Made by a program: the position numbers and the translations under genes. Of a stretch of 48,732 nucleotides of DNA, positions 8,959 through 41,821 are shown in pieces. The notes under the pieces are model-generated. The model ran no database searches, was not told where the DNA came from, and worked only from the letters and a program-made list of their open reading frames with translations. Within the stretch, counting starts at the first letter, position 1. Each line of letters starts with the position of its first letter. The stretch lies in IMG/VR virus record IMGVR_UViG_2541047965_000007, positions 1 to 48,732 of that record; one strand, given 5' to 3'. The DNA is from a virus (lineage: Duplodnaviria; Heunggongvirae; Uroviricota; Caudoviricetes).

Positions 8959-9531
8959 TCAGGGGGATTCATTGCTCTTATTTGCCGGAAATTTTCTATA
9001 AATTGTGGAAACACCCACATCAAAAATCAGTGCAATACGCTGTCTTGATTCTCCGGCCTCGAGTAAACGTCCAATCTGTGCCCACTGTTCGGTGGTCAAC
9101 TTAGGACGGCGTCCACCTACTCTGCCTTTAGCACGAGCTGCAGCCAGCCCCGCCCTGGTACGTTCAACTATCAGTTCGCGTTCCATTTCAGCCAGGGCCC
9201 CCATGACATGAAAAAAGAAACGGCCCATTGGGGTGCTGGTATCAATACTGTCAGTCAGGCTTCGGAAATTCACGCCACGCTGGCGCAGCTCTTCTATCAG
9301 CGTAACAAGATGCCGCATACTGCGCCCCAGTCTGTCCAGCTTCCAGACAACCAGCGTGTCTCCTGCCGATAGTGTCCTGAGCAGCTTTTTCAGCCCCGGT
9401 CTGTCGGACTTGGTGCCACTGATTTTATCCTCAAAAATCCGCTCACATCCCGCACAGTTCAGTGCATTGCGTTGCAAATCGGTGTTCTGGTCATTTGTTG
9501 ACACGCGTACATAGCCAATAAGCATGATCAT
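8959..9531 (-). CDS. serine DNA invertase, Hin/Gin/Cin/Pin family (likely start at Met3, 9525)
   Basis: Near-identical over long stretches to Hin-type invertases: GYVRVSTNDQNTDLQRNAL, TLVVWKLDRLGRS, MGRFFFHVMGALAEMERELIVERT, C-terminal HTH. Confidence 0.9.
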   Translation of the reverse strand: MIMLIGYVRVSTNDQNTDLQRNALNCAGCERIFEDKISGTKSDRPGLKKLLRTLSAGDTLVVWKLDRLGRSMRHLVTLIEELRQRGVNFRSLTDSIDTSTPMGRFFFHVMGALAEMERELIVERTRAGLAAARAKGRVGGRRPKLTTEQWAQIGRLLEAGESRQRIALIFDVGVSTIYRKFPANKSNESP

Positions 9532-9552
9532 CCCCCTGAATAAAAACCGGAG

Positions 9553-10074
9553 ATGATGCCAGTTAGCCGTTATCTCTGCATTTTCATAAACGTTGGTTTG
9601 GGAGAAGGCTCTGCATTACCTGTTGGTGTGCCTGTTCCATGGCCTTCAGCCACACCGCCAACAGGCTGGCTGAAATGCAACGGTGCGGCTTTTTCTGCTG
9701 AAGAATACCCGGAACTGGCAAAGGCTTATCCGACAAATAAATTGCCTGATTTACGTGGTGAGTTTATTCGTGGCTGGGATGACGGGCGCGGTATTGATGC
9801 AGGACGTGTTTTATTGAGCATTCAGACAGGGATGCTGGAAAAACACCGCCATATTGTTGTTGCCAATGATGGTTACGACACAAAAGATGAATGGGAACTG
9901 GCTACGATTTTCAAAAAGACATACACACAAGGACGGGGACTTGATGCCACAAATACAGGAGGGAGTCTGATCCCATCACCGACACTTCATTCACGAGGGA
10001 GTATCGGTAATACTGGCGGGAGTGAAACCCGTCCACGAAATATTGCATTTAACTATATCGTGAGGGCTGCATAA
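9553..10074 (+). CDS. alternative tail-fibre C-terminal cassette (silent in this orientation; would fuse to H constant region after inversion)
   Basis: ORF reads in frame through the crossover site (VGLGEGS...), with no plausible independent promoter or SD. Confidence 0.65.
   Translation: MMPVSRYLCIFINVGLGEGSALPVGVPVPWPSATPPTGWLKCNGAAFSAEEYPELAKAYPTNKLPDLRGEFIRGWDDGRGIDAGRVLLSIQTGMLEKHRHIVVANDGYDTKDEWELATIFKKTYTQGRGLDATNTGGSLIPSPTLHSRGSIGNTGGSETRPRNIAFNYIVRAA
9581..9606. repeat. 26-bp invertase crossover site, left
   Basis: ttttcataaacgttggtttgggagaa; its reverse complement shares its first 14 nt (ttctcccaaaccaa) with the site at 11423..11448; resembles hix/gix/cix sites with a central AA. 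Confidence 0.7.
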
Positions 10075-10676
10075 TGGATAACGCCGTATTAAATAGCGAG
10101 CTTATTGCCACGAAGGCGGGGAATATTACCGTCTATAACTATGATGGTAAAACTCGGGAATATATTTCTACTTCAAATGAATATCTTGCCATTGGTGTCG
10201 GTATCCCTGCATATTCCTGTCTGGATGAACCTGGTATACATAAGGCGGGTTATGCTATCTGCCGTTCGATGGATTTAAACTCATGGGAATATGTGCCAGA
10301 CCATCGCGGTGAAATCGTCTATAACACCGAAACGGGAGACGCCAAAGAAATCACAGCTCCGGGTGATTATCCTGAAAATACAACCACTATCGCCCCGTTA
10401 ACGCCATTCGATAAATGGGATGGTAAGAAATGGGTGACCGATACTGAGGCACAGCATAGCGCCGCAGTAGACGCGGCAGAAGTACAGCGTCAGTCACTGA
10501 TTAATACTGCAATGGCTTCCATTAGTCTGATTCAACTTAAATTGCAGGCCGGGCGGAAGCTGATGCAGGCAGAGACCACCCGACTTAACACTGTGCTGGA
10601 TTACATTGACGCGGTGACGGCAACAGATACCAGCACAGCGCCGGATGTCATCTGGCCTGAACTGCCGGAGGCGTAG
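10074..10676 (+). CDS. tail-fibre assembly chaperone (partner of alternative cassette)
   Basis: 200-aa ORF whose ATG overlaps the cassette stop; C-terminal WPELPE motif typical of tail-fibre assembly proteins. Confidence 0.7.
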   Translation: MDNAVLNSELIATKAGNITVYNYDGKTREYISTSNEYLAIGVGIPAYSCLDEPGIHKAGYAICRSMDLNSWEYVPDHRGEIVYNTETGDAKEITAPGDYPENTTTIAPLTPFDKWDGKKWVTDTEAQHSAAVDAAEVQRQSLINTAMASISLIQLKLQAGRKLMQAETTRLNTVLDYIDAVTATDTSTAPDVIWPELPEA

Positions 10677-20926: not shown

Positions 20927-22693
20927 ATGAACACCACACTGACACCCGCAGATCTCGATCCCCGTCGGCAGGCCATGCTGCTGTACTTTCAGGGATACCG
21001 CGTAGCCCGCATTGCTGAAATGCTGGGCGAGAAAGTTGCAACCGTTCACAGCTGGAAAAAACGCGACAAGTGGGGTGACTATGGTCCGCTGGATCAGATG
21101 CAGCTCACCACCGCCGCACGCTATTGCCAGCTCATTATGAAGGAGCACAAAGAAGGGAAAGATTTCAAAGAGATTGACCTGCTGGCGCGCCAGTCTGAGC
21201 GCCACGCGCGGATCGGCAAGTTTAACAATGGCGGCAACGAAGCCGACTTAAACCCTAACGTCGCCAACCGCAACAAAGGCCCGCGCCGTCAGCCGGAAAA
21301 GAATGTTTTCACCGATGAACAGATTGAGAAGCTGGAAGAAATCTTCCATTCCTCCATGTTCAACTACCAGCGCCACTGGTGGGAAGCCGGAAAAACCAAT
21401 CGCATCCGCAACCTGCTGAAGTCTCGCCAGATCGGCGCGACCTTTTACTTTGCCCGTGAAGCCCTGATTGACGCCCTGCTGACCGGGCGTAACCAGATTT
21501 TCCTTTCTGCCAGCAAGGCTCAGGCCCACGTCTTTAAACAGTACATCATCGACTTTGCCAAAGAAGTGGAGGTGGAGCTGAAAGGCGATCCGATGGTGCT
21601 TCCTAACGGGGCCACGCTTTACTTCCTCGGCACCAATGCCCGCACTGCCCAGAGTTACCACGGCAACCTGTATCTGGATGAATATTTCTGGATACCGAAA
21701 TTCCAGGAGCTGCGCAAAGTGGCTTCCGGTATGGCTATTCACAAAAAATGGCGACAAACCTATTTTTCCACGCCATCCAGTCTGACCCACAGTGCTTATC
21801 CGTTCTGGTCCGGTGCGCTGTTCAACCGTGGGCGCAACAAAGCCGATAAGGTGGACATCGACCTGTCCCACAGCAATCTGGCCCCCGGCCTGCTGTGCGC
21901 AGACGGGCAATACCGCCAGATAGTCACCGTGGAAGATGCAGTGCGCGGCGGCTGTAACCTTTTCGACCTCGATCAGTTGCGCATGGAGTACAGCCCGGAC
22001 GAATACCAGAACCTGCTGATGTGCGAGTTTGTGGACGATCTCGCGTCCGTGTTTCCGCTCAGCGAGCTGCAGGCGTGCATGGTGGACAGCTGGGAAGTCT
22101 GGACCGACTTTCATGCACTGGCCCTGCGCCCGTTTGGCTGGCGCGAAGTGTGGATCGGTTATGACCCGGCAAAAGGTACGCAGAACGGCGACAGCGCCGG
22201 ATGCGTGGTGGTGGCACCGCCAGCCGTGCCGGGCGGTAAGTTCCGCATTCTTGAGCGTCACCAGTGGCGCGGGATGGACTTCCGCGCCCAGGCTGACGCC
22301 ATCAAAAAACTGACCGAACAGTACAACGTGACCTATATCGGTATCGACTCAACCGGCGTTGGTCACGGGGTTTATGAGAACGTGAAAGCGTTCTTTCCTG
22401 CCGTCCGGGAGTTTGTCTACAACCCCAATGTTAAAAACGCCCTGGTACTCAAGGCCTACGACATTATCAGCCACCGTCGTCTGGAGTTTGACGCCGGGCA
22501 CACCGACATTGCGCAGTCATTCATGGCAATCCGTCGCGCCACCACCGCCAGCGGCAACCGCCCGACCTATGAAGCCAGCCGCAGCGAAGAAGCCAGCCAC
22601 GCCGATCTGGCCTGGGCAACAATGCACGCACTGTTTAACGAACCACTGCAGGGCGAGTCCGCCAATACCAGTAATATTGTGGAGATTTTTTGA
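20927..22693 (+). CDS. P: terminase large subunit gpP
   Basis: 588-aa ORF; size and divergent position match P2 gpP. Confidence 0.9.
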   Translation: MNTTLTPADLDPRRQAMLLYFQGYRVARIAEMLGEKVATVHSWKKRDKWGDYGPLDQMQLTTAARYCQLIMKEHKEGKDFKEIDLLARQSERHARIGKFNNGGNEADLNPNVANRNKGPRRQPEKNVFTDEQIEKLEEIFHSSMFNYQRHWWEAGKTNRIRNLLKSRQIGATFYFAREALIDALLTGRNQIFLSASKAQAHVFKQYIIDFAKEVEVELKGDPMVLPNGATLYFLGTNARTAQSYHGNLYLDEYFWIPKFQELRKVASGMAIHKKWRQTYFSTPSSLTHSAYPFWSGALFNRGRNKADKVDIDLSHSNLAPGLLCADGQYRQIVTVEDAVRGGCNLFDLDQLRMEYSPDEYQNLLMCEFVDDLASVFPLSELQACMVDSWEVWTDFHALALRPFGWREVWIGYDPAKGTQNGDSAGCVVVAPPAVPGGKFRILERHQWRGMDFRAQADAIKKLTEQYNVTYIGIDSTGVGHGVYENVKAFFPAVREFVYNPNVKNALVLKAYDIISHRRLEFDAGHTDIAQSFMAIRRATTASGNRPTYEASRSEEASHADLAWATMHALFNEPLQGESANTSNIVEIF

Positions 22694-23721
22694 TGAAAGA
22701 ACATATCGCGCCAGGCGAAACCGTAACTGCAGAAGAAACTAAAAAACCCGTTGCGGAGGCTTTCAGCTTCGGCGATCCCATTCCAGTACTGGACCGCCGC
22801 GAACTGCTGGACTATGTGGAATGCGTACAGACAGATCGCTGGTATGAGCCGCCAGTGAGTTTTGACGGACTGGCGCGAACCTTCCGCGCTGCCGTACATC
22901 ATAGCTCCCCGATTGCAGTAAAGTGCAACATTCTGACCAGTACCTACATCCCTCATCCGCTGCTCAGCCAGCAGGCTTTTTCACGTTTTGTGCAGGACTA
23001 TCTGGTATTTGGTAATGCCTACCTGGAGAAACGCACGAACCGCTTCGGTGAAGTTATCGCCCTTGAACCGGCCCTGGCAAAATACACCCGACGCGGGTTA
23101 GACCTGGAAACCTACTGGTTTGTGCAATACGGTATGACAACACAGCCGTATCAGTTCACGAAAGGCAGCATCTTTCATCTGATGGAACCGGACATCAACC
23201 AGGAGGTCTACGGCCTGCCCGGTTATCTTTCTGCCATTCCGTCAGCCCTGCTCAACGAGTCCGCCACGCTGTTCCGCCGAAAGTATTACATTAACGGCAG
23301 CCATGCAGGCTTCATCATGTACATGACCGATGCCGCGCAGAATCAGGAGGATGTGAACAACCTCCGCAACGCGATGAAAAGCGCCAAAGGTCCAGGCAAC
23401 TTCCGCAACCTGTTTATGTACTCACCTAACGGCAAAAAAGACGGGCTTCAGATCATCCCATTGTCAGAAGTCGCGGCGAAGGATGAATTTCTTAACATCA
23501 AGAACGTGAGTCGGGATGACATGATGGCAGCGCACCGCGTGCCGCCGCAAATGATGGGGATTATGCCGAATAATGTTGGGGGGTTTGGGGATGTCGAAAA
23601 GGCGAGTCATGTATTTGTTCGTAACGAGTTAATTCCATTACAAAAAAGGCTAATTGAATTAAATGAATGGCTTAATGACGAAATTATTCGTTTTGACGAA
23701 TATAAATTAGGCAATACTTGA
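22690..23721 (+). CDS. Q: portal protein gpQ
   Basis: 343-aa ORF whose ATG overlaps the P stop; P2 synteny and size. Confidence 0.9.
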   Translation: MMKEHIAPGETVTAEETKKPVAEAFSFGDPIPVLDRRELLDYVECVQTDRWYEPPVSFDGLARTFRAAVHHSSPIAVKCNILTSTYIPHPLLSQQAFSRFVQDYLVFGNAYLEKRTNRFGEVIALEPALAKYTRRGLDLETYWFVQYGMTTQPYQFTKGSIFHLMEPDINQEVYGLPGYLSAIPSALLNESATLFRRKYYINGSHAGFIMYMTDAAQNQEDVNNLRNAMKSAKGPGNFRNLFMYSPNGKKDGLQIIPLSEVAAKDEFLNIKNVSRDDMMAAHRVPPQMMGIMPNNVGGFGDVEKASHVFVRNELIPLQKRLIELNEWLNDEIIRFDEYKLGNT

Positions 23722-23758
23722 TTAAAGCCTGTTTAAACTGGCTGTCGGAACAGCCAGT

Positions 23759-24607
23759 TTAAACACCGGCACCAATGAAACCGCCATATGAATCTTCTTC
23801 AAGGCTGATGTATTCTACCCTCCATTGATCCATCCGCCTCAATGCATACAGGGAGAAATGAGTATCAGCAACAGCTATGCACGTATTCAATTCTATAAGT
23901 TCTGAATGCCCCAAGGTTGGATCACCATAAAACTTATAAAACAAAGCCTTTAGATCAGAACATGTTTGTTCAGCCGCTCTTCTGGCATCGGGGCCACCTT
24001 CAGTTGCATCATAAACAACATTGATAGAAAGCTCATATGGTATGCCTTCCTCAAGATCGTTAAATCTTTCTTCGCCCAAATCGAAAAAAACTCCGATCAA
24101 ATGCTCTGCGTTTGTGGCGATAATATCCGCAACTTCTTTTTCGAAAATAAACTTTTTATCCTCGTCGTAAGCCCGCAAGCGCTCTTCAAACGAGTTAGGA
24201 AACGCTGGACGACCATACTTAGCAGCTAACCATTGCTTAAGAGCTTGTTTCTCTTCTGTGCTAATGGAGAATGCTGGATCGTTTTCCTCACAACAGAAAG
24301 CTTCTTTAGGAATGATGACTTTCCTTTCATGCCGGAGCTCTACTGCATTCTTCTTCGCACTTTCTGGGTTTTCAAAACATAGATCGAGTATTCTCGGATG
24401 CTTAGCTCTTTTCATCCTGCTTGACCCCTTTTTCAAGGGGCCAAACATCAGTTCCACGTTTTTTTCTGAATTACTCTGTAAATCACAATCATGCGTTATA
24501 ACTACAACTTTATGGTTCGTTTCATCAGGCTGCAGAATTCCAAGTGAAACGGCATCATCATGTTTAAGTACATGCCCCTGACGCCATGATGTTCCTCGTA
24601 CCAACAT
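23759..24607 (-). CDS. hypothetical cargo protein (282 aa), no domain recognised
   Basis: Last gene of a three-gene minus-strand module between Q and cos; AT-richer than the phage core. Confidence 0.6.
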   Translation of the reverse strand: MLVRGTSWRQGHVLKHDDAVSLGILQPDETNHKVVVITHDCDLQSNSEKNVELMFGPLKKGSSRMKRAKHPRILDLCFENPESAKKNAVELRHERKVIIPKEAFCCEENDPAFSISTEEKQALKQWLAAKYGRPAFPNSFEERLRAYDEDKKFIFEKEVADIIATNAEHLIGVFFDLGEERFNDLEEGIPYELSINVVYDATEGGPDARRAAEQTCSDLKALFYKFYGDPTLGHSELIELNTCIAVADTHFSLYALRRMDQWRVEYISLEEDSYGGFIGAGV

Positions 24608-24616
24608 AAATGTGAT

Positions 24617-25279
24617 TTATTCCTCTACCGTTCCAGGAATTGAAATAGATGACTTCCAATCATCTGTCGGTTTCGCCTTGCTTGCTAAGTAATTGGCCGA
24701 TTCAGCAGCAGCATTCATCGCTTTAGCTTCATCAATCAATACCTGAACTGCCCTATTCCAATCCTCACCTTCTTTTACTACGTCCATTAATGACTTACCA
24801 TTAAATGCTTTCATTTTCACCAATAGCTTCGCATCATGGAGTCCAGCTTTGGAAAAAGAGTCAGCGACATTACTAAGGTTGGTAATGAATTGCACTTTTG
24901 AAGCATCATCAGGCTGGTTCTCCCCTGACAACCATTTATAGAGAGCCTGCCGAGTTATCCCCAAATCCTTTGCCAGTTCTGACATTGATGGAGACAGCAC
25001 TTCTCGAATATTAGCTAAATGTTGGGCAACATTCCTGACATCAACCTCAGGAGAAATTGCAGGCGTGTACGTTGATTCTATGGAATCAAATGCAAACTGA
25101 ACCCTTGGCTGAACATACTGACGCCATTGCTTATAAGCATTTACAGGGTATGAAGCCCCCGTACCAACTAATAGTAAAGATGCGGCGACAGCAACAACAC
25201 CTGATACACATGAGCTTGACTGCAAATTTGGAGAATATCGATCTACAGAGCCTATGCTTCCGGTGGGAATTGCATACAT
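24617..25279 (-). CDS. hypothetical protein with N-terminal hydrophobic segment and XRE-type helix-turn-helix (start at internal Met)
   Basis: SD ggaggtga 8 nt upstream of ATG at 25279; hydrophobic VSGVVAVAASLLLVGTG; HTH-like MSELAKDLGITRQALYKWLSG. Confidence 0.6.
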   Translation of the reverse strand: MYAIPTGSIGSVDRYSPNLQSSSCVSGVVAVAASLLLVGTGASYPVNAYKQWRQYVQPRVQFAFDSIESTYTPAISPEVDVRNVAQHLANIREVLSPSMSELAKDLGITRQALYKWLSGENQPDDASKVQFITNLSNVADSFSKAGLHDAKLLVKMKAFNGKSLMDVVKEGEDWNRAVQVLIDEAKAMNAAAESANYLASKAKPTDDWKSSISIPGTVEE

Positions 25280-25298
25280 TTTAGTCACCTCCGTTGTT

Positions 25299-26108
25299 TC
25301 AGTGCCATTTAGTACGGGCAAAATCTGAAACCATGCCTTCAAATGCTTCTTTAACTTTACTATGCAACGAAAGAATCTGTTTTTCAATTAACTGCAAATC
25401 AGTTGACATGTTGCCTTCAACATAATGATCTGTATCAATTATTGCGTGCATACGATGCTCTGTGTTACTAAATCTCGGCAACGGCAGTAAACCATTAGGA
25501 ATCATATCTGGCGGAAAACCTAGCTGACCATTCATCTTATGTATTCGTGAAACCATAAATCCATTAGGGATCAATGGCTCAACACATGTCTGATATACGG
25601 ACTCTTGTATAGACTGTATTGGCGTCCATCCGAAATCAACACCATGAAGTTCCTTTACAAGATACTGCTCAATTGTTTCGCTTTTCTCAGGAAACACAGC
25701 ATCCAAATATCGAAGCCCAATCCGACTTAACAGCGATGGCTTAGCAAATTCTAGAACTTTGCTCAGACCAAGTATCAATGACGAGATGAAAGATACATGG
25801 TTATCATAATATGTTGTATGGAACGTAATGAAATCGTTGCCTAAAACAAAACCAGATCTTCTATCTGCATCAATCATCAACCAACTTGTCACAGGCTCAA
25901 ATGAATGTACCGGTGGCTCATTGGGGTTTTTTATTTCAAATTTCAACTGAGTTGTATTGGAAACCTCAAATAAAGGAAATCCCTCAACTCTTAGCGCATC
26001 TTGTATGTCTGGAACATACTTACTCATTGCAGCTATTGGAGTAAACTTTACCTGTACCAATGCATAGTAAACGGGCGCATTGGACATACGTTCGCTGTTA
26101 GTACTCAT
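25299..26108 (-). CDS. hypothetical cargo protein (269 aa)
   Basis: First gene of the module; N-terminus MSNAPVYYALVQVKF reminds me of a conserved-hypothetical family seen in defence islands, but this is unverified. Confidence 0.6.
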   Translation of the reverse strand: MSTNSERMSNAPVYYALVQVKFTPIAAMSKYVPDIQDALRVEGFPLFEVSNTTQLKFEIKNPNEPPVHSFEPVTSWLMIDADRRSGFVLGNDFITFHTTYYDNHVSFISSLILGLSKVLEFAKPSLLSRIGLRYLDAVFPEKSETIEQYLVKELHGVDFGWTPIQSIQESVYQTCVEPLIPNGFMVSRIHKMNGQLGFPPDMIPNGLLPLPRFSNTEHRMHAIIDTDHYVEGNMSTDLQLIEKQILSLHSKVKEAFEGMVSDFARTKWH

Positions 26109-26248
26109 GCCGCCCTCCTTGAAATTGTTTCATCTCATATCTCTTTATCTTACTAACTGTAGTTTACACATAGGTTGACACTTTCTCCATCATTAAGTTC
26201 ACTATGACATCAATAGCCAAAACTCTTACGTAATCGCTTCGGCGCGCG

Positions 26249-26471: not shown

Positions 26472-26705
26472 TTAATGCAGCCAGCTGTCGTCTTCCCACA
26501 CCTTCTGCATAATTTTCATCACTTGTTTTCTTTCTTCGTCCAGTTGCAGTCCGGTTAGTTCCACACCGTTAGAGCTACCTTTGCGAATGCGAATTACCGT
26601 TTTGGGATACAGGGGGCGCAGATTGCGGTAAAGCTCGGATTCAAGGGCGTCCAGGGTAGACTGGCTAATCTTCTGCTCTTTATCGATCATTATTTCAATG
26701 CGCAT
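26472..26705 (-). CDS. DinI-family protein (77 aa, start at MRIEIMIDK)
   Basis: Sequence pattern of DinI (MRIE..., ...WEDDSW); SD gaggtga 5 nt upstream of ATG at 26705. Confidence 0.8.
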   Translation of the reverse strand: MRIEIMIDKEQKISQSTLDALESELYRNLRPLYPKTVIRIRKGSSNGVELTGLQLDEERKQVMKIMQKVWEDDSWLH

Positions 26706-26715
26706 AAAAGTCACC

Positions 26716-26904
26716 TCAGCTGATGACATCCATTGAGCGGTTGTATTCGTGGGTTCTGATTTTTGCCATGAGTTCATCAGTCAATTCAGAAACCCACTGC
26801 AGAGCCAGCCCCTTCTCTTCATCACTACACTCACTAGCCGCTACAAGCTTAAGAAAAAAATCAATGCGCTGGAGCTTCAAAGACTCCAAAAAATAGTCCT
26901 GCAT
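26716..26904 (-). CDS. small SOS-controlled protein (62 aa) at the position of 186 tum
   Basis: SD taggagg upstream of ATG at 26904, about 45 bp downstream of a consensus LexA box. Confidence 0.55.
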   Translation of the reverse strand: MQDYFLESLKLQRIDFFLKLVAASECSDEEKGLALQWVSELTDELMAKIRTHEYNRSMDVIS

Positions 26905-26947
26905 CTTTCCTCCTATGACACCACACGCAATACTGTATGTATAACCA

Positions 26948-26963
26948 CTGTTTATATTTACAG
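26948..26963. promoter_or_regulatory. LexA box (SOS operator)
   Basis: CTGTTTATATTTACAG matches CTGT-N8-ACAG with AT-rich spacer; a weaker overlapping half-site CTGTATGTATAA lies just upstream. Confidence 0.8.
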
Positions 26964-27057
26964 TATATAATAATCTTACTGATGTAAAACGTTTTTTTAC
27001 GTTCATCAGCCTGATATGCCTGGTATTATTAAGAGCACGAATTGTTAATCCGCGTAA

Positions 27058-29472
27058 TTAATACAGGTTCCGCCACTGATCATCTTCCTGCAAACGCTGG
27101 TTCCGATAGAAGATACGCAGGCCTGCTCCTGACGGAATACTGCCTCCGCGAAGGAGTAAATCGACCTCTTTCTCGCTGCCATCAAATCCTCTGGACTTCA
27201 GCTCATACACGAGCTGCAGTCGCTGATGGTCTGTAATTCGCTGTTTGTAGTCTTTACGCCGTTTCGGTTTCACCAGGCGTAACCTTGCTGCCAGTTCCCG
27301 GCGCTCTTTTTTGCTCATACTGTGCAGGTAATCGTGCAACTCCTTGTCATCCATGCTGGTAATGTCCGTTCTGGGGTCCCCATCAGCTGATTTATCTTTC
27401 TCCTGTTGGTTCAAATTTTCAGCAAGGGGACAGTTATTGCCACGAGTCCAAGGGGCGCAAGCGCCCTGGTCGGCTGCCGCCTCCTGAACGTCAACGGCCT
27501 TACGAACCATTTTCCACTTCACTGCATGAGTGCAGATCTTGCCCTCTGCAATGGGTGACCAGATGCCATAAATACGAATACCGTGATCGCCATAGGCGGT
27601 TGGCTCTTCGTTTATTTCATAAGCGGTTCTGATGAGGTGATATTTGCGGGGAACCAGTACGCCGCCCTGCTTCATGATGTAGGTGGCAAAACAACCAGCA
27701 TCAGCAGCAGCCAGGATGGCATCAAGGCGCGGGTTATCCAGTACCGGCGCACCTGCTTTTTTGTCACCCTGTTGCCTTGCCGCCTGACCAGCCAGCAATC
27801 GCAGTTCACGGTAAGCCTGACGCCCCGGAATGCCAAAGAAGCGGAATTGCTGAACACGATGCAGAGACGCCCAGGCATTAACGTATTCAGCGTTATCACG
27901 CAGGGATTTACCCGTTTCCTTACTGATCTCGCCAGCCAGACCACGCCCGTCAATATTCTTACTGATATATTTCGCAATGTAGCTTGTCGGCGTTCCTTTG
28001 CGCGGGTTTATCAGCTCAGACTTAAAGCGTGGCCCCGTGTTATTGCCCAGCTCCTCGCGGTCTTCACGGATGGCAAACTTACGCAACAATGCAGTAATGG
28101 CGCGGCGGTCTTTTTTGCGCATGAAACACAACAGGTGCCAGTGAACTGTGCCGTCATGATGCGGCTCAGCCACCCGCACGCCATACCAGCGCAACCCGGC
28201 TTTGTGCATAGCCTTACGAAATGCAGCAAACATGCCGACCAGATAATCGCTGCTTTGTCTTACTGTCGCGTTGGTCCAGGTCGGGTTTGGCCTGCCGTTA
28301 TTTAGCGTGGAATGGAAACGTGACGGACAGGTGATGGTGTAGAAAACGGCGCAGTCACCACGCATTTCCGCAATAAGCTCCAGGCCTTTAACACAGGCCA
28401 TCATCTCGTTGCGGCGATGCGCCGGGTTGCTGCTGCTGGCGTTTACCACATCCTCCATGTTCAGCGTGTCGCCGTCTTCGTTCACCAGTTCATGAGAACG
28501 GAAAAACTCCAGCGACTTACGGCGCTGCTCACGTTTATGCATCACGGCTTCATAGCTGACATAGGGAGATGCTTTTTTGCTGACCAGGCAGACAGCACGC
28601 AACTGCTCTTCCCGCCATTCGCAACGCATCTTCCATAATTTCCGATACCACCAGTCGGCGCACAGCATACGCGCCAGCGAACCCGGAATGAGTTCATAAG
28701 GCACAGGTTTGCGGCGGTTTCTTTTCCGGCGGAGTTGCTCAAACGCAGGCGGTATGACATCCAGTCGCAGGGTTTCTGCAGCCACCTTTTCCCATGTCTT
28801 GCGGATTTCTTCTGGCTTAACATCATCGGAGGCGTACAAATCACCACAAGCGGCATCAAGACACATGCTCATATGCGCAGCGACAAGGGTAGACAGGCGT
28901 TTCACCTGATCCTGACTCATTTCAGGCAGGATCAGCAGACCGTCCAGCCCTTCATGGCTTGCCATAAAACGAAAAGATGCAGATAGCTGGCTGTCGCGTA
29001 CATGCTCCAGTCGTTCCAGACATGGCTTAATCGTCTCACGTAAATAGCGGGAATAAGCCTTTGGCCTGCCCAGGCTACTGAAATATTCAATACGTTGCAT
29101 CAGCGGCTTGCTGATATGGGAAGGCTGGGCGTTGACGTCAGCCAGAATGACCATGACTGGATTAAAACGCTGCTGCTCATGCGCCATCTTTGCCCGGCTA
29201 ATGAGCTTATCCTGCTCCATTTTACGTTGGACAGGATCACGGGATTCATTAAAGAAATAACGCTCCCAGACCTGATCACTCAGTGCCTCGCGGCGCAGTT
29301 GTTCCTGCTCGTTATCGGTAGCGTACAGAGTGATCAGGTTTGAAAGCGCAGAAACCGGCGCAACTTCCGCCGGGTCCAGATAAGGGTTAATGGCCTTTTT
29401 CGGGCTGTTCCATGAGAATGCTGCGGCGACCTCGTTAAAGCCGCTGCAGTTGTTCATATCAGCATGGCTCAT
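27058..29472 (-). CDS. A: rolling-circle replication initiator gpA
   Basis: 804-aa ORF with HUH-like [11 protein letters not shown] and catalytic-Tyr region YIAKYISK; P2 gpA position. Confidence 0.9.
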
Positions 29473-30398
29473 GCACGCACTCCGTACACGGCAGAACTAT
29501 CCACGCCACGCGAAGGATCAAATCCCACCCAGCAGCGCGGCCCGGAAACAGCGATGATTTCTGTTGCAGATTTACTCTCACCAGCTGCTACACCGATGCT
29601 GCGTTTTGCCTTGATGTAGTGGTGAGTAAAATTGCGATACAGCGAACGGATCAGGGATGTATCACTGTTAGAAACAATGACCGGATGTCCTTCTGATGAC
29701 CGATGTTCAAGAACGGATGCCAGGTGATACTGGTCATCTTCAGTGAAACCATCAGTGTGATAGCCGGAAAACGTACCGTCATACGGCGGATCGCAATACA
29801 CCACATCCCCCACCTGCAGCATCGCCAGCGTTTCATCAAAGCTTGCGCAGATAAACGTTGCACGCTGGGCTTTCTCTGCAAATGCGCGAATTTCTTTTTC
29901 AGGGAAATACGGATTTTTATAATTACCGTACGGAATGTTGAAATGCCCGCTCTTGTTATAGCGACATAATCCACGGTAACCATGACGATTGAGATACAGG
30001 AAATATACCGCTTTCATGAAATCAGTAATTTCAGTGGAGTAATTAAACTCCTGCCTTATGTTGTAATAAGCCACCTCCCTGTTTGCGATCTCAAATAAAA
30101 CTCTGGCGCGAGATATAAACGATTCACAATCAGCGGCAACCTTTTTATAGAGGTTGATTAAATCAGGATTAATATCCGCAACCAGATAGCTGGGGTAATC
30201 CGTCTCCATCATCACAGCACAGGAACCCGCGAAAGGTTCAACCAGTCGCGGGCCAGCAGGAAGGTGTTTTTTCAGTTCGGACATAATGGCGGTTTTATTT
30301 CCCGCCCATTTCAGGATGGTGCTCATACAGCACCTCCTGCAATAACATATCCTAAAGCTTCTAATGGGGTTAATGGGCGAATTGATAGCATCACCCAT
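29469..30398 (-). CDS. DNA N6-adenine methyltransferase (Dam-like)
   Basis: 309-aa ORF with DPPY motif ([11 protein letters not shown]). Confidence 0.8.
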
Positions 30399-34828: not shown

Positions 34829-36037
34829 GTGGCAAGAACGACACGCCCCCTGACCAACACAGAAGTTCTGCGCGCTAAAGCGTTAGAAAAGGATCTAACG
34901 TTGCATGATGGCGATGGTCTTTTTCTGCTCGTTAAAACGAACGGTAAGAAGTTATGGCGTTTCCGTTATCAACGTCCAGCAACAAAACAGCGAACAATGA
35001 TGGGGCTAGGTGCCTTCCCCACCCTTTCACTTGCTGACGCCCGACGGTTAAGAGCGAATTACCTTTCCTTGTTAGCCAACGGAATTGACCCGCAAATTCA
35101 AGCTGAAATTGCAGTGGAACAGCAGCAAATCGCACTGGACAGTATTTTTTCAACCGTCGCCGCTAACTGGTTCCAGCTTAAAAGCAAAAGCGTTACCCCT
35201 GATTACGCGAAAGACATTTGGCGTTCACTAGAAAAAGATGTATTCCCTGCCATCGGTGAGATCCCAGTTCAGCAAATCAAAGCCCGAATGCTTGTTGAAG
35301 CCCTAGAGCCTATCAAAGCACGTGGGGCACTAGAGACGGTACGTCGTCTGGTGCAGCGTATTAATGAGATAATGATTTACGCCGTAAACACAGGTCTGAT
35401 TGATACCAATCCAGCATCAGGTATTGGGATGGCCTTTGAGAAACCTAAAAAGCAAAACATGCCGACGCTCCGGCCAGAAGAATTACCGAAGCTGATGCGT
35501 TCTTTGATTATGTCTAATCTGTCTGTTCCGACACGTTGTCTTATTGAGTGGCAACTACTGACCCTTGTACGCCCTTCTGAAGCCTCTGGTACTCGGTGGG
35601 CAGAGATCAATCTCGATGCAAAGCTCTGGACGATTCCAGCCGAACGGATGAAGGCCAAACGTGAGCACATTGTTCCTCTATCTCCTCAGGCATTAGAAAT
35701 TCTGGAAGTGATGAAACCAATCAGTGCTCATCGTGAACATGTTTTTCCGAGCAGAAATGACCCAAAGCAAGCAATGAATAGCCAGACTGCAAATGCTGCT
35801 TTAAAGAGAATTGGATATGGTGGTAAATTAGTAGCTCATGGTTTACGGGCAATTGCTAGTACATGTATGAATGAAGCAGAATTTAATCCTGATGTGATTG
35901 AAGCTGCATTAGCTCATATTGAAAGTAATGATGTTAGAAAAGCCTATAACCGCTCAACCTATCTAGAGCATCGAAAAGAATTGATGAACTGGTGGGGTAT
36001 GCATTGCACTTCTGCAAAAAATGGGATTGTTAGATAG
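34829..36037 (+). CDS. intA: P4-type tyrosine integrase (GTG start)
   Basis: 402-aa ORF recognised as P4/CP4-57-type integrase; SD aaggag 7 nt upstream of GTG. Confidence 0.9.
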   Translation: MARTTRPLTNTEVLRAKALEKDLTLHDGDGLFLLVKTNGKKLWRFRYQRPATKQRTMMGLGAFPTLSLADARRLRANYLSLLANGIDPQIQAEIAVEQQQIALDSIFSTVAANWFQLKSKSVTPDYAKDIWRSLEKDVFPAIGEIPVQQIKARMLVEALEPIKARGALETVRRLVQRINEIMIYAVNTGLIDTNPASGIGMAFEKPKKQNMPTLRPEELPKLMRSLIMSNLSVPTRCLIEWQLLTLVRPSEASGTRWAEINLDAKLWTIPAERMKAKREHIVPLSPQALEILEVMKPISAHREHVFPSRNDPKQAMNSQTANAALKRIGYGGKLVAHGLRAIASTCMNEAEFNPDVIEAALAHIESNDVRKAYNRSTYLEHRKELMNWWGMHCTSAKNGIVR

Positions 36038-36078
36038 CAGCATCTTTTTGACTCAATTCTACATAAATGGAGTAATAA

Positions 36079-36441
36079 ATGGATCTTAGTTTCTTTAAGA
36101 GCAGCTTGAAATACAATGCAACAGCAACGATTTTCTGTGTTTTTGCATTATATTTATCAATGCCTATTTTCGAAAATGTTAATTTCATATCGAGCCATCC
36201 AATTATCGTCTCAGTACTATTTACTTTACTTGTAAATTCTTTACTTTTAATAATTTACTGGACATCCCATACAAAAAAAACAAATTCAAAGTCGGGTGTA
36301 AAAGGAAACAAAATAATCGGAAACAAGGCAAAAAACATTAACATACTTTCCAATGGAGAAATAACTAAAAACATCGTCAGTAATAATGATAGTAATGGTG
36401 ACATTAATATTGGGCAGGTCTTCAAAAATGGAAAAAAATGA
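36079..36441 (+). CDS. small membrane protein with two TM helices and Asn/Lys-rich repeats; probably the N-terminal part of a frameshifted gene
   Basis: SD ggag upstream; hydrophobic ATATIFCVFALYLSMPIF and IIVSVLFTLLVNSLLLIIYW; ends at TGA right after an A7 tract. Confidence 0.55.
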   Translation: MDLSFFKSSLKYNATATIFCVFALYLSMPIFENVNFISSHPIIVSVLFTLLVNSLLLIIYWTSHTKKTNSKSGVKGNKIIGNKAKNINILSNGEITKNIVSNNDSNGDINIGQVFKNGKK

Positions 36442-37009
36442 AAGCCTAGTCATTTCTGATAATGAAATAACTAATAATAATCCTGGGAGAGATCTGAACA
36501 TTGGGACACACATAAGTTTCAATGAGGTTAAGAATCGGAGCAATGCATTAGCAAATTTATTAGAACGTTCTAAAAAACTTTGTGAAACAGATCAAGAATA
36601 TAAATACATGCTCGAAGAGTTACAAGAGTATCTTCAGCCCCGTCCAGGTCGAAAAATCATAGGGTTAGAAGGAAAACTAAAAGAAGGCAATCGACTTGAT
36701 TTGTTAGAAGATGCAGCTTATTTAGAAAATAAGTTTGCAAGACGAGTTAGCAAGCATCAGTTTTCCATATCAGAAGAAATCATTTACTGTCATTGCTTAA
36801 GTAAAATAAACTCATCTTTTTCACAATATGTCAAACCACTGTTTAAAAACACAGTAAACACTGCTATAATTGACAGAGTCATTTATGACAGAATAGTTGA
36901 ACCTCTTTATGAAGAAGTGTCTGAAGTTAGTACCGCTATTTCTAGCGAATTAATTAGAGGCATGATTTTCTTCTTAACGGGTAAATGTCACTTACGGTGG
37001 GTTGGTTAA
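36428..37009 (+). CDS. hypothetical helical protein; probably the C-terminal part of the same frameshifted gene
   Basis: Begins with a repeat (SDNEITNNN...DLNIG) homologous to the end of the upstream ORF but in the +1 frame; stop overlaps next start (TAATG). Confidence 0.55.
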   Translation: MEKNESLVISDNEITNNNPGRDLNIGTHISFNEVKNRSNALANLLERSKKLCETDQEYKYMLEELQEYLQPRPGRKIIGLEGKLKEGNRLDLLEDAAYLENKFARRVSKHQFSISEEIIYCHCLSKINSSFSQYVKPLFKNTVNTAIIDRVIYDRIVEPLYEEVSEVSTAISSELIRGMIFFLTGKCHLRWVG

Positions 37010-37500
37010 TGATTATTTATCATCCATTTAAAGATGCAAACCATTGCTCATATCGTATTATAAGCTTGCTATATAAAAACAATAACAAGATTAGGGATGA
37101 GCACCTTAATTTTATGGATTTCTATTACCTTTTCCCTTGTCAAATAAAGAACATTGATGGATGGCCGCGTTCAAATTCGAAACTTGCACGCCGAATTTCT
37201 ACTATAGAGGACACTTATGAAACAATTGAAAATCCTCGTAGAATTTTCTTTGAATTAAATATAATACGTAGAAACACCTTAGCACATTTATTTTCGAAGG
37301 GCATTCTATCCTTGATAGATGAATATATCCACCTGAATATTGAAAGAATACCAACATCCCTGATTAATACGCTTGAAGCTGACACCTTTAGAGCCACCTT
37401 CGAATTTACTACCATTGCTAACGAAATACCCAAACTAGCAATCAAAGGTAAAAAAGGCCTTAAAGCAAAAACTAATTTAATGGAATATCGTTATGATTAA
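37009..37500 (+). CDS. hypothetical small protein (163 aa), middle component of the cargo operon
   Basis: Translationally coupled on both sides (TAATG at 37007..37011; ATGATTAA at 37493..37500). Confidence 0.6.
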   Translation: MIIYHPFKDANHCSYRIISLLYKNNNKIRDEHLNFMDFYYLFPCQIKNIDGWPRSNSKLARRISTIEDTYETIENPRRIFFELNIIRRNTLAHLFSKGILSLIDEYIHLNIERIPTSLINTLEADTFRATFEFTTIANEIPKLAIKGKKGLKAKTNLMEYRYD

Positions 37501-39412
37501 AAAACCGTCATATCTCAAGTTAAATAGATTAGTCATAACTAAGGCTGGTAAACAGTTATATGACGAAAAATTTCACGATGGTATAAACATAATCAGAGGG
37601 GAGCACTCTGTAGGAAAATCAACAATTTTAGATATGATTTTTTATATTTTAGGCGGAGAATTAAAAAAAGACGACTGGAAATATCCAGCCGATAAATGCT
37701 CGAATGTTAATGCAGAGATTACAATTAATGACCGCATTATTACCTTAACCAGGCCAGTGGATCCTAGTGGCGCAGCTCCTCATATTAAAATCTATGAAGG
37801 AGAGTATGATAAGGCAATGAAAGATGCAGATGGCTGGCTAGACTATGGCTCAAGGAGAAGCAATGAGCGATTAAGCTTCTCAGAAATGATGTTTGAACTT
37901 TTCGATTGGGGACAATATAAATCTGACAGCCATCAAAATTTAACCATGCATCAAATAATGCGACTCATTTATTTAAGTCAATCATCAGATTCTAACAGAA
38001 TATTTCGCAAAGAGTCTACTCGCTCTGACAATGAAAATACCAGGACAGCTATCGCTGAGTTTCTTTTCGGTCTCGATGATTTGGAAACTCACTCAGTTCG
38101 TCAAAATTTATTGAAGTATGAGAGAGATTATGAAAATACCGGAACAGAATTAAGAGCATATTTCGAGCTTTTAGGAAATGACTCTAATCTAACTGTTGAT
38201 ATAATTAACGAATTATTGAATGAAAAATACACTGAACTATCCAAAATAGACTCAAAGAAAGAAATTTTATTGCGTTCAACAGATAATATTGATGGTAACA
38301 ATGAATATAACCTAGCTATCGAACGCAATGACATCCTTTTAAAAATACAATCACTAACAAACAAAATATCACTTAAAAACAATGAGTTACATTCAATAAA
38401 GACCGAAATCCAGGACTGTTTGCTTTTTGGAAAAAATTTAGCATATCGTTTAAAATCTTTGAATGAATCACAAGAAACATATAAAGGCTTAGGTCGAATT
38501 TCTTTTGAATACTGCCCTTGTTGCTTAACACCAATATCAGAACACGATAACACTGATAGTGGTTGCGCACTTTGCAAATCAACAGTCAACAATTCCTCAT
38601 TAGAGGAAAAATATATTGAATCACTGAACGAACTGCAATATCAACAGCGTCAAAATAATAAAATTATAGAAAAACTATATAGTTCAGCAGAATATATAGA
38701 GGGCTATATTAAAGAGCTTCAAAAAGAGCTTGAAAGCTTACACAATAGATTGTTTGAAATCAATTTAGTCTCAAATTATCGAGAATTGGCTATAACTTCA
38801 ATCGTAGAAGAAAGAACTGCAAAATTAATTGAAATCAACTCCCTGCAAGATAAAATTGATTCAATAGCTAAAGTTGACGACTTAAAATCAAAACGTGAAG
38901 ACATCGCAAAGCAAATGGAAAAATTTCGTTCACGAATAACCGCTCTTGAAGCAAAAAACAAGCGCAGAAAAGAATATGTTTACTCAAAACTATCTGAATT
39001 TTCCACTTTTATTCTTGAAGGAGACTCGGGGAATGAAGAGCTATTTAAAACAGCAACTCAACTTTCCTCAGAGATTGACTTTGCAAAAGATCGCTGGCTT
39101 TTGAATGAACGGGTAAATTACTCAGATAGTTCAAACGTTGTCAAAAAAGCAGCTCTACATTTAGCATTTCTTATTTTTTCAATCGTTGATTCAGCTTGCC
39201 GATATCCTCGTTTTTCCATTATGGACTTCGAATGCGGGGATATAAATGAAGCTCGAAGCCATAACCTTCAAAAATTAATCACTACAAGCCTTAGTAACTT
39301 TAAAGGTTTTCAGCTTATTATGACTACATCTAAAATTGATTCATCTTTGAACAACAACACTTACGGGGTTGGTCGTTATTATGACAAAAATGACTACATT
39401 TTGAAGATTTGA
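37493..39412 (+). CDS. Rad50/SbcC/SMC-like ABC ATPase with coiled coil and Cys4 cluster
   Basis: Walker A GEHSVGKST at 37598..37624 in an SMC-head-like N-terminus; long Glu/Lys/Leu-rich middle; CPCC-x16-CALC at 38513..38575; C-terminal FSIMDFE Walker-B-like motif. Confidence 0.75.
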   Translation: MIKKPSYLKLNRLVITKAGKQLYDEKFHDGINIIRGEHSVGKSTILDMIFYILGGELKKDDWKYPADKCSNVNAEITINDRIITLTRPVDPSGAAPHIKIYEGEYDKAMKDADGWLDYGSRRSNERLSFSEMMFELFDWGQYKSDSHQNLTMHQIMRLIYLSQSSDSNRIFRKESTRSDNENTRTAIAEFLFGLDDLETHSVRQNLLKYERDYENTGTELRAYFELLGNDSNLTVDIINELLNEKYTELSKIDSKKEILLRSTDNIDGNNEYNLAIERNDILLKIQSLTNKISLKNNELHSIKTEIQDCLLFGKNLAYRLKSLNESQETYKGLGRISFEYCPCCLTPISEHDNTDSGCALCKSTVNNSSLEEKYIESLNELQYQQRQNNKIIEKLYSSAEYIEGYIKELQKELESLHNRLFEINLVSNYRELAITSIVEERTAKLIEINSLQDKIDSIAKVDDLKSKREDIAKQMEKFRSRITALEAKNKRRKEYVYSKLSEFSTFILEGDSGNEELFKTATQLSSEIDFAKDRWLLNERVNYSDSSNVVKKAALHLAFLIFSIVDSACRYPRFSIMDFECGDINEARSHNLQKLITTSLSNFKGFQLIMTTSKIDSSLNNNTYGVGRYYDKNDYILKI

Positions 39413-39464
39413 CAATACCGTTTACCCACATTGTCATTTAACGTAGTTATCTTCACAAATCTAA

Positions 39465-39500
39465 GTTGCTAATTTATTAATAATTAGCAACCTTTTTATT
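39465..39500 (+). terminator. intrinsic terminator of the cargo operon
   Basis: gttgctaatt-tattaat-aattagcaac hairpin followed by cttttt. Confidence 0.6.
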
Positions 39501-39595
39501 GTCACAAAACGTTTTACATTCATATGAGGCTGTTTCGATAAATTAGTTTTAAACACCTCTGTATAATAAATATGCGTATATCCACTCAGCGCGCA

Positions 39596-39614
39596 GTGCT
39601 TTCCCCGCCTCGCC
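39596..39614. other. P2/P4-type cos (19-nt cohesive-end sequence)
   Basis: gtgctttccccgcctcgcc is the reverse complement of GGCGAGGCGGGGAAAGCAC, which I recall as the P2/P4 cohesive end. Confidence 0.8.
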
Positions 39615-39778
39615 CGCCCGCTTTGCGGGGCGGTTTTAATGCAGTTTCACTGACACGCTCAGGCCGCGCCGGGAATGGCGCGGTCTGCAGAAAATGAGGC
39701 AAGAAAACGCATGCAAAGCCATGCACCTTATCGATGCATGGCTTTTTTCAGTAAAAACGGGCGGATTTTCGGGGAGTT

Positions 39779-40351
39779 TTACACAGACTGATGTGATGCC
39801 AGTTGCGCACTTTTACGCGAAAAAATCATGTTCTGCGCAGGAGTGAATTTTTCACGGCTGTCATCCACCGAAGCCGCGTCAGGCCTGAATCCGATGGTCG
39901 TTAAAATGTCGCTATCCTGTGCGGAATAATTAATTTTTTCACCCTTCGCAAGCCAGGACAGGAGGGCTTCACGCAGGGCATCTGTGGCACGCTGTATGGC
40001 ACAGTTTCGGGCAATGGCCGTCAGCTCACTGTAGCCCATCAGCTCCGGTGCCAGTGCCGCCGCCAGTGCTGTGCCGTGCTGCTGCATAAAATCATTCAGC
40101 CGGTCGCGGATGCTGATGTGCTGAACGGCTTCATGCGAACGAATATAACGACCGGCGGCCTGATTCACCTGCCATTTTCTGACTTCGATAATATTGCGTA
40201 ATTCGTCCAGGCGACTGACGTTTCTGCCTTCTCCTGACAGAAGCCGCAGATATTCCTGTTCGGCCGCAGCCAGCTCATTTTTGCGTTGCAGCCATGCTGC
40301 TTTGTTATTCTGACAGGTGTCAAAGGCCTGCTGTAAGGCTGTGCTTTCCAT
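39779..40351 (-). CDS. psu: polarity suppression protein Psu (capsid decoration)
   Basis: 190-aa ORF recognised as Psu; gene order psu-delta-sid. Confidence 0.85.
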   Translation of the reverse strand: MESTALQQAFDTCQNNKAAWLQRKNELAAAEQEYLRLLSGEGRNVSRLDELRNIIEVRKWQVNQAAGRYIRSHEAVQHISIRDRLNDFMQQHGTALAAALAPELMGYSELTAIARNCAIQRATDALREALLSWLAKGEKINYSAQDSDILTTIGFRPDAASVDDSREKFTPAQNMIFSRKSAQLASHQSV

Positions 40352-40424
40352 CGTTATCTCTTTCTCATCATGCTGAAGAATAAAAATACGGTGTGCGGCG
40401 ACGGCCGGTGTTAACCGGCAGCCC

Positions 40425-40925
40425 TCATTCCAGACGCAGCGAATATGATTGTGTTTTTAAGCGTACTGGCGGCAGTTCCTGTTTTTCATGCAGGCGTTCT
40501 GCCAGTTCGTCCGGTGTGACCGGGCGGACAATGAAGCGGTTGATGGTCTGAAGCGTTTTAAACACCAGACCACAGCCCGGATCCGTGCACACATAAAAAC
40601 GCTCGGTGACTTCCTGAGAAAGACGCCGCGATGTTCTTGACAGTGCAAGGCCTTTACATCTCCGACAACAATATCCGGTAACAAGCATTCTTTTCGGGCG
40701 TTTCATGCTACCGGAGGCTGACGTCAGTGAATCGCGGTATCTCTGTTTGCCTGAAATGTATTCCATTCCTGAATCTTTACAGTCAGAGAAAAAGCTTTCA
40801 CTCGCTTCAAATGTCGCAGAGCAATAAATATTCCGGCACTGTGCAATCATTATCTTGGAGCCATCGTCCATGAAATGTGCGCGACGGGTGTGAGCAACAT
40901 GTCCACACGACGGGCAGTAAATCAT
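40425..40925 (-). CDS. delta: Delta late-gene transactivator (tandem Ogr-like zinc fingers)
   Basis: 166-aa ORF with two Ogr-type Cys4 modules (CPSCGHVAHTR ... CRNIYC and CCRRC ... CTDPGC). Confidence 0.85.
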   Translation of the reverse strand: MIYCPSCGHVAHTRRAHFMDDGSKIMIAQCRNIYCSATFEASESFFSDCKDSGMEYISGKQRYRDSLTSASGSMKRPKRMLVTGYCCRRCKGLALSRTSRRLSQEVTERFYVCTDPGCGLVFKTLQTINRFIVRPVTPDELAERLHEKQELPPVRLKTQSYSLRLE

Positions 40926-41674
40926 GACAGCAGTCCTCTGGCCTTAAGCTCTGCTCCCTGCTGGTCTATTTTGTCCTGCCACACCTTGCGCTGTGCCGGT
41001 GTGCCTGCCACCTCATAATCCATGTGCGGGAGTGTTGCCGCTGACAGTCCGGTCAGCCGGAGAACCGGCTCGCCGGTGAGGCTGATTTGCATCTGTTTTA
41101 TTTTCTGTTCCAGCGATGATTTCACCTGCTGCATGACAGCTTTATCGGGTGCGACGTAGCCCTGATGCCCGGTGGTGTTGGCGAGCGGATTTTCCTGTAC
41201 CAGAATGCTCAGATGCATTGCCCGGACAAGCGCCTCACAGGTTTCATTCAGGGCGTGTTCCAGCTCATGCTCTGCATACAGACTCAGAAGGTGATGATGT
41301 GCCTTCCGGTAGGCGGTGGCCGTGCTGTCACACGCCCCTTTCAGGCGTTCGCGTTCAAAATTCAGCACCACGGCCAGATTGTCATATTCCTGTACCAGCT
41401 CCCGGCGTGCCACGCGCTCAATGTGGCGCTGTTTCAGCTCGTCGCTCAGGACACCACCGGCTGCACGAAAGGCCGTGCGCCAGTCGTCAGCGTCGTTTCC
41501 GTCGGCCTGCGTCAGCGCATTTTTTTCCTGCTCTACCCGTTCAATGGCCGTGACGGTCTCATCCATCAGGCGGGCGTTCTCAAGGTGGGCGGCTCTGGCC
41601 TTTTCCAGTTGTGCCAGTGCGGGTTGCAGATATTCAGGGATGGTGTTGTCAGACATTTTCCGGCTCCTCGTCAC
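40922..41674 (-). CDS. sid: capsid size determination protein Sid
   Basis: 250-aa helical ORF upstream of delta; P4 synteny. Confidence 0.8.
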   Translation of the reverse strand: MTRSRKMSDNTIPEYLQPALAQLEKARAAHLENARLMDETVTAIERVEQEKNALTQADGNDADDWRTAFRAAGGVLSDELKQRHIERVARRELVQEYDNLAVVLNFERERLKGACDSTATAYRKAHHHLLSLYAEHELEHALNETCEALVRAMHLSILVQENPLANTTGHQGYVAPDKAVMQQVKSSLEQKIKQMQISLTGEPVLRLTGLSAATLPHMDYEVAGTPAQRKVWQDKIDQQGAELKARGLLS

Positions 41675-41821
41675 TTCAGGTTAAGAAAATTGTGACGTAC
41701 ACCGGACAACAACACGACGCATTGCAGATGTGCCAGCCCTGACACAGGAGACTCATCCTCAGACCGGCAAGCCAGGAAAAGGTCGCAGGAAAAACCGGCT
41801 TACTGTTTGTTTTTTATATTT

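Follow-up and report, generated by a model that had tools for sequence, protein, structure and literature searches.

A compact, mobile three-gene operon beside the cos site of a Fels-2/186-like prophage: candidate tripartite toxin-antitoxin or abortive-infection cargo

INTRODUCTION

P2-like phages are documented to keep anti-phage systems at the gpA-cos-gpQ locus, an experimentally established variable hotspot: three of eight newly cloned systems from it were active, as was old-tin, several tested systems gave no defence, and about one-quarter of the loci hold plasmid-maintenance genes, not defence genes (Rousset et al. 2022, Cell Host Microbe, PMC9122126). Here we describe a cargo of three genes, A, B and C, occupying this hotspot (positions 23759-26108) in a P2-family prophage on IMG/VR record IMGVR_UViG_2541047965_000007; the whole stretch analysed (positions 1 to 48,732 of the record) is called the window. 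The same three proteins, with a few residues different and at the same locus, are listed in that study as system #59 (label HTH_31, 69/18,150 loci, "1 TM in protein 2"; Table S5B, PMC9122126), a catalogue entry without function, test or family analysis. The locus and its gene list are thus already known, and toxin-antitoxin (TA)-like cargo in a prophage defence hotspot is of a familiar kind. To this record we add the membership of A in family TIGR04255, a MazF-like fold in C, conservation across phyla and an upstream element. A preliminary description of the window had called the module possibly undescribed; this goes too far with respect to the catalogue and stands insofar as the trio is not among the tested systems and proved identical to none of the characterised defence systems compared with it. 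The literature searched held no description of these protein families, their tripartite make-up, their cross-phyla spread or the operator, and a 2026 preprint on P2/P4 hotspots assayed P4 loci alone.

Among validated hotspot systems, Rst_3HP (three hypothetical proteins; pFR109), which protects against P1 (PMC9122126), resembles the trio: it too consists of three genes lacking Pfam domains, and it occupies the interval from Q to the same Fels-2-type cos and terminator. Its proteins are, however, unrelated to A, B and C in size and sequence (Table S2A), and PADLOC models miss A and C; identity with Rst_3HP was rejected.

Two further groups invite comparison. In RosmerTA (RmrT/RmrA), as in the trio, a helix-turn-helix (HTH) antitoxin-like protein partners a poorly defined toxin, and the HTH of B resembles that of RmrA, but the match is limited to the HTH, A and C match no Rosmer model, and B lacks the M78 peptidase domain that is the hallmark of RmrA. 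Type II TA operons of the MazEF/PemIK/CcdAB class include tripartite variants such as paaR2-paaA2-parE2 and the toxin-antitoxin-chaperone (TAC) systems. As in these, few genes are closely packed into a presumably co-transcribed unit carried by mobile elements, a third accessory gene is present, and the gene of a DNA-binding protein, with a likely autoregulatory operator, lies just upstream of that of a protein predicted to adopt a CcdB/MazF fold. The differences are equally plain: C has no sequence similarity to MazF, PemK or CcdB, is 2.5 times larger at ~280 amino acids (aa) and carries an extra alpha/beta domain; its conserved site (H-D-C-D/E/R, with C41, D42 and R72 invariant) is not the Arg/Thr site of MazF; B is an XRE-type HTH protein with a hydrophobic N-terminus and does not have the AbrB fold of MazE; and known tripartite systems have no counterpart of A.

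RESULTS AND DISCUSSION

A compact operon between portal gene Q and cos

The trio is a compact, self-contained and widely mobile operon, a finding far more secure than any role in defence. All three genes lie on the minus strand. Gene A (25299-26108, 269 aa) comes first, preceded by the strong Shine-Dalgarno (SD) sequence AGGAGG at 26119-26114; gene B (24617-25279, 220 aa) follows after 19 nt, and gene C (23759-24607, 282 aa) closes the operon after a further 9 nt. The longest open reading frame (ORF) of gene B spans 24617-25387; its true start is the ATG at 25279, giving 220 aa in agreement with the RefSeq annotation (WP_001368407.1), and a strong SD, GGAGGTG (25292-25286), lies 7 to 13 nt upstream of that ATG. 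Each of the three proteins has hundreds of homologues, and A, B and C are therefore real genes and not chance ORFs. GC content is 0.38-0.43 over 23.6-26.2 kb, compared with 0.52-0.61 in genes P and Q and the capsid genes. The preliminary description had read the gene number, lengths and orientation, the AT-rich composition and the features of the middle protein (an N-terminal hydrophobic segment, an XRE-type HTH and a strong SD) from the letters of the window, and on all of these points our analysis agrees with it.

The window opens with the tmRNA gene (697-1059), followed by the prophage, which is of the Fels-2/186-like type. Its genes run from tail and capsid genes through terminase P (20927-22693, plus strand) and portal Q (22690-23721, plus strand) to the cargo, then to a cos-like site, a DinI-like gene and the replication endonuclease gpA (27058-29472, minus strand, 804 aa). 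The left boundary of the cargo is likely a perfect 16-bp hairpin (23730-23765) that separates the stop codons of the converging genes C and Q, probably serving as a bidirectional terminator (RNA fold of -24.1 kcal/mol, z of -6.1 against shuffles). The right boundary is a cos-like 19-mer of Fels-2/186 type, GGCGTGGCGGGGATACGAG (26267-26249, minus strand), read from the sequence, whose flank matches Fels-2. The 3HP locus that Rousset et al. cloned (PMC9122126) has the same cos and flanking terminator, and in other P2-like loci, too, this cos and its flank immediately precede the cassette. The cargo thus sits between the replication gene and portal Q, beside cos, as cargo of the P2-like gpA-gpQ hotspot does. 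It had been placed in the slot where P2 carries old and tin, which is correct in that both sites are inside the hotspot as published but not in the finer position: in P2 itself, old and tin are on the A side of cos (cloned sequence, Table S2A, PMC9122126), whereas the present cargo is on the Q side.

Its presence among related prophages is sporadic. Flanks were matched in 1,252 of 5,426 complete Escherichia coli genomes and at least 80% of the query (the module) in 18, the presence/absence pattern of hotspot cargo (18 with the module versus ~1,250 with the flanks), and its designation as accessory cargo is upheld. Carriers include clinical Shiga-toxin-producing E. coli (STEC) and other E. coli strains.

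Distribution of the module

Gene order A-B-C was identical in every related locus in which all three positions could be read (~70 loci, down to 21% identity), on P2-like phages, plasmids and genomic islands of Proteobacteria, Cyanobacteria and Deinococcota. A homologue of C was found on 46 viral contigs (39-100% identity); the order was the same in the 45 viral loci readable at all three positions, one further locus ends at a contig edge and one lacks gene A. Most of the viral contigs with the trio are P2-like and carry it beside Q, even where Q is only 58-93% identical, and some have no P2 genes whatever. Ten metagenome or genome loci (39-100% identity) showed the same order. A tblastn search of plasmids with A returned 16 records (21-49% identity), and all eight of the more distant plasmid loci that were opened (A 21-34% identical; Pseudomonas, Klebsiella, Acinetobacter, Gloeocapsopsis, Meiothermus, Mesorhizobium, Vibrio and Rhizobium) repeated the A-B-C arrangement; four plasmid loci outside those used for profile building still matched the B and C profiles (E of 1e-6 to 5e-65). 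In distant versions of the trio the genes overlap by 4-10 nt, which suggests translational coupling.

Outside P2 phages, on plasmids, islands and phage-plasmids, frequent neighbours are HicAB, VapBC, PIN-MazE, PemK, YhaV-PrlF, RES, Abi_2, BrxR with an SNF2 helicase, and DUF499 genes. Individual cassettes lie beside BrxR, an SNF2 helicase and an NYN protein, amid HicAB, Phd and PIN genes on a Komagataeibacter plasmid, in integrase-bounded islands with Abi_2, ImmA/IrrE-type or DUF499 genes, and adjoining YhaV-PrlF.

Three metagenome contigs (L009-L011, 9065-13896) share a block of four genes after the trio, encoding proteins of 379 aa, ~518 aa (an AAA+ protein of the sigma-54-activator type), 342 aa and 315 aa; the position of the block is unchanged between two distinct upstream contexts, and it may be another mobile module. 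Beside a distant trio on a Pseudomonas putida plasmid (L058, 1859-3175), a RES-domain gene is apparently split into two ORFs, the first holding a HEPN/RES N-terminal domain and the start of RES and the second the rest of RES.

The upstream element

The 170 nt upstream of gene A were aligned across loci, followed by a pattern count, and a conserved cis-element emerged. In the window it lies at 26162-26180 on the minus strand and consists of the direct heptamers TGTCAAC (26180-26174) and TGTAAAC (26168-26162), 12 nt apart. The pattern GTCAAC-N5-TGTAAAC (26179-26162 in the window, minus strand) was present on the same strand, 47-78 nt before the start of gene A, in 60 of 62 loci, the count covering loci that had enough upstream sequence and an A of 39% identity or more; the other two have a variant of it. 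Across 878 kb of fetched loci, counting both strands, it occurred only once elsewhere, so that the element evidently travels with the cassette into unrelated replicons. In distant versions of the cassette it is extended to four heptamers. The natural reading is that the heptamer pair is a putative operator for the HTH protein B.

A simple consensus scan called no consensus sigma-70 promoter upstream of gene A. Reading by hand, we find a tentative candidate weaker than consensus at 26161-26189 (minus strand; -35 TGGAGA at 26189-26184, a 17-nt spacer and -10 TAAACT at 26166-26161), which overlaps the heptamers and is kept in close relatives.

The three proteins

Protein A is a full-length member of TIGR04255 (180.7 bits against a cutoff of 30; residues 7-269 on profile positions 1-252 of 252), which supersedes the earlier statement that no domain could be assigned to it. 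The family has no assigned function in NCBIfam, and full-text literature searches returned nothing for TIGR04255, its InterPro or CHP names or the three RefSeq accessions of the trio. A TIGR04255 protein was the first gene of the trio in nine of nine independent distant loci inspected (with the Robbsia locus left out), and R129, R133, D225 and D227 are conserved. Neither single sequences nor profiles linked A or C by sequence to a solved structure.

Near its N-terminus protein B carries a hydrophobic stretch (residues 24-42, Kyte-Doolittle mean 2.03); an XRE-type HTH follows at residues ~85-125, and the C-terminal part is a conserved helical region with a tail. The HTH_3 match is marginal in the window protein (23.3-23.6 bits against a cutoff of 23) and was found in 19 of 23 homologues (best E of 7.7e-6); the Xre-like-HTH model was matched weakly by only two of 23 members. 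Protein B also matches the phrog_8 transcriptional regulator (4.5e-15) and, weakly, HigA-type antidote models and the HTH of RmrA (PADLOC, E of ~1e-3 to 5e-6). Together these features suggest a putative repressor/antitoxin. The C-terminal region, though conserved, matched no Pfam model; a likeness to the DUF2384 toxin-binding domain at the C-terminus of Xre/MbcA/ParS antitoxins, suspected at first, was not supported (no PF09722 match at E ≤ 10 with ten C-terminal fragments). A membrane anchor universal to the family was likewise rejected, with no hydrophobic segment (window Kyte-Doolittle value <1.2) in six of 27 members. Comparison of B with the neighbour of a RES toxin in L058 was uninformative because that neighbour is itself a split HEPN/RES protein. 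One of 23 B-family proteins has an isolated, probably spurious, Pfam match to Tox-HDC ("toxin with a H, D/N and C signature"; E of 6.7e-4), recorded because the partner protein C bears a conserved H-D-C-D motif.

Protein C is predicted to have two domains, a beta-rich N-terminal domain resembling the SH3-like barrel of CcdB, MazF and ToxN, and an alpha/beta C-terminal domain. An exhaustive profile search places it in a family of 1,971 clusters (50% identity), nearly all of 255-300 aa. The N-terminal domain carries the motif H39-D40-C41-D42 together with E52 and R72, followed by the linker W126-L-x2-R-Y-x-R133; across 135 diverse members C41, D42, R72, W126 and R133 are invariant, and Q10, H39, D40, E52 and Y131 are kept in at least 97%. 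On its modelled fold we regard C as a putative effector/toxin.

Protein C and five distant homologues had no Pfam match at E ≤ 0.1, MazF/PemK (PF02452) included, and an alignment of the C family against MazF/Kid/EndoA/PemK reached an hhalign probability of 0.2%. Assignment of C to MazF/PemK/Kid by sequence was consequently rejected: with a fold match and no profile-profile signal, C would share the fold of MazF/PemK and is not a member of that family. An active nucleotidyltransferase (MNT) in the C-terminal domain was also rejected, because the conserved acidic residues are absent there and the G-S ... D-x-D motif was not found.

Function and alternative explanations

We give about an even chance to the reading that the trio is an autoregulated tripartite cargo of TA or abortive-infection type, acting in lysogenic conversion from the cos-Q slot of a Fels-2/186-like prophage. 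In the lysogen, transcription would start from the promoter overlapping the TGTCAAC/TGTAAAC heptamers; B would bind these through its HTH, repress the operon and also keep C inactive, as the antitoxin-then-toxin order of type II TA operons suggests. C would be the effector, a MazF/CcdB-type scaffold with a different conserved site (H-D-C-D, E52, R72); released upon infection, it would arrest growth, the target probably being RNA or another essential one. The weakest step concerns A, which may be a third component that either senses the infection cue or acts as an enzyme modulating the B-C pair. On this model the cassette would act against competing phages, by abortive infection or by excluding superinfection, and would stabilise the mobile element as a by-product. 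A broader proposal, possible but on balance doubtful, is that a TIGR04255 protein, an XRE-HTH partner and a ~280-aa MazF-fold protein together constitute an unrecognised tripartite abortive-infection anti-phage system widespread across phyla, whose effector has a new Cys/Asp-centred active site on the CcdB/MazF scaffold and in which A, with a double-repeat fold like those of TBP and guanidino kinases, is a sensor or modifying enzyme of a new type.

The anti-phage role that we infer for the cassette is drawn from its position, mobility, neighbours and toxin-like fold, and several observations weigh against it. The TA genes among its neighbours are equally compatible with a plain addiction module, and some cassettes lie amid ordinary chromosomal genes, as in a Shewanella chromosome where the cassette stands alone. 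The trio is absent from the tested-system tables of Rousset et al., its sequences occurring only in the catalogue file (PMC9122126). When 22 diverse family members (including A and C of the window, eight further distant A and eight further distant C) were searched against PADLOC-DB v2.0.0, a check proposed in the preliminary description, A and C had no match and only the HTH of B weakly matched RmrA. C has no recognisable MazF catalytic pattern and, given its lack of sequence or profile similarity to MazF/PemK, the toxin assignment rests on a moderate fold match of one domain in a model with a pTM of 0.51. The fold of A is ambiguous among the guanidino kinase, TBP and AdoMetDC classes, which makes its role a guess. 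The preliminary description had named two outcomes that would speak against a new cargo of this kind, homology to phage morphogenesis or replication proteins and identity to a characterised defence system; none of the former was found for the trio, and none of the latter by PADLOC with the 22 members, by comparison with 3HP or in the literature.

Much of this evidence also suits a plain addiction module, stabilising its carrier by post-segregational killing with no anti-phage role, and such a module fits nearly as well as the defence reading; architecture and fold argue for both alike, the trio is frequent on plasmids beside other TA pairs and partition genes, and plasmid-maintenance genes make up the share of P2 hotspot loci given above. 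We nevertheless consider addiction on its own unlikely, with the module at the same cos-Q slot in P2-like phages over 39-100% protein identity, in a slot that swaps its cargo rapidly and has a high rate of validated defence hits, and with a third conserved component, A, that simple addiction does not need. Many TA modules fill both roles, and this explanation therefore partly overlaps the preferred one. A reversal of roles seems decidedly unlikely: the catalytic effector would then be A, as an ATP-using modifying enzyme with a fold of the guanidino-kinase/glutamine-synthetase class, C would serve as sensor or adaptor, and B would be the regulator.

Explanations outside of conflict fare worse. 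A regulatory, stress-response or metabolic accessory module that simply rides on mobile elements would account for the lack of a sequence match to any known defence or toxin family, for the cassettes found amid housekeeping or lipopolysaccharide (LPS) genes and, by analogy, for those hotspot systems that Rousset et al. tested without seeing defence (PMC9122126); yet the cassette is compact and self-regulated, moves as one unit among unrelated replicons and phyla, includes a toxin-fold protein, has TA, Abi or defence genes as recurrent neighbours and lacks metabolic or transport domains, and we hold this reading to be very improbable. A role for the trio in the life of its own P2-like phage, for example in packaging, lysogeny control or counter-defence, has in its favour the position directly beside cos and the portal gene, a slot kept in many P2-like phages. 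It is hardly credible even so, because the cassette lives outside P2 phages as well: the same genes with the same upstream element occur on plasmids and chromosomal islands without P2 genes, the module is absent from most otherwise near-identical prophages, and a DNA-level search of deposited phage genomes found none with it.

Should the trio prove to be an active defence or TA system, it would provide a function for the orphan TIGR04255 family and for a family of ~2,000 clusters of ~280-aa proteins, both now unannotated, add a tripartite architecture to prophage-borne immunity modules and reveal that the CcdB/MazF fold can be put to a new use in catalysis or binding. Given its occurrence in clinical STEC and other E. 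coli, host range in phage therapy and competition among prophages could be affected. The hypothesis lends itself to direct testing through the putative operator and the conserved positions of C (C41, D42, R72, R133) and A (R129, R133, D225, D227).

Other features of the window

Several further features of the prophage were recorded. The tmRNA gene at its left edge is ssrA (697-1059; tag ANDENYALAA), probably the integration site of the prophage. A Cin/Hin-type serine invertase (8959-9531; Resolvase, 2.3e-53) lies beside a tail-collar fragment (9553-10074) and a tail-fibre assembly gene (10074-10676), a neighbourhood (8959-10676) that suggests an invertible tail-fibre (host-range) segment. The interval between gpA and cos holds, at 26472-27006, both the DinI-like gene (Pfam, 1.3e-22) and a short ORF matching phrog_698, after which stands a strong terminator hairpin (26336-26317) with a T-run. 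A Dam-type DNA adenine methylase (29469-30398, from the RefSeq annotation of an identical locus) lies upstream of gpA.

From ~34.8 kb a P4-like satellite (34829-46567) abuts the prophage, so that a helper prophage and a satellite are adjacent in one window. The satellite has an integrase (34829-36037), Psu (39779-40351; Pfam, 1.3e-88), an alpha primase-helicase (44234-46567) and the exact P2/P4 cos 19-mer (39596-39614). That 19-mer is the sole exact match in the window, and as a marker of the P2-family prophage it was rejected. In its own hotspot the satellite carries a cargo of Lamassu/ABC-3C type (36079-39412). A 120-aa ORF there (36079-36441) had no matches; the system's recognised components are a 207-aa protein with the CTD9 domain (PF20285, 1.5e-31), a 171-aa MC5 middle component (PF20291, 2e-28) and a 639-aa LmuB-like SMC ATPase (PADLOC LmuB, 7e-36).

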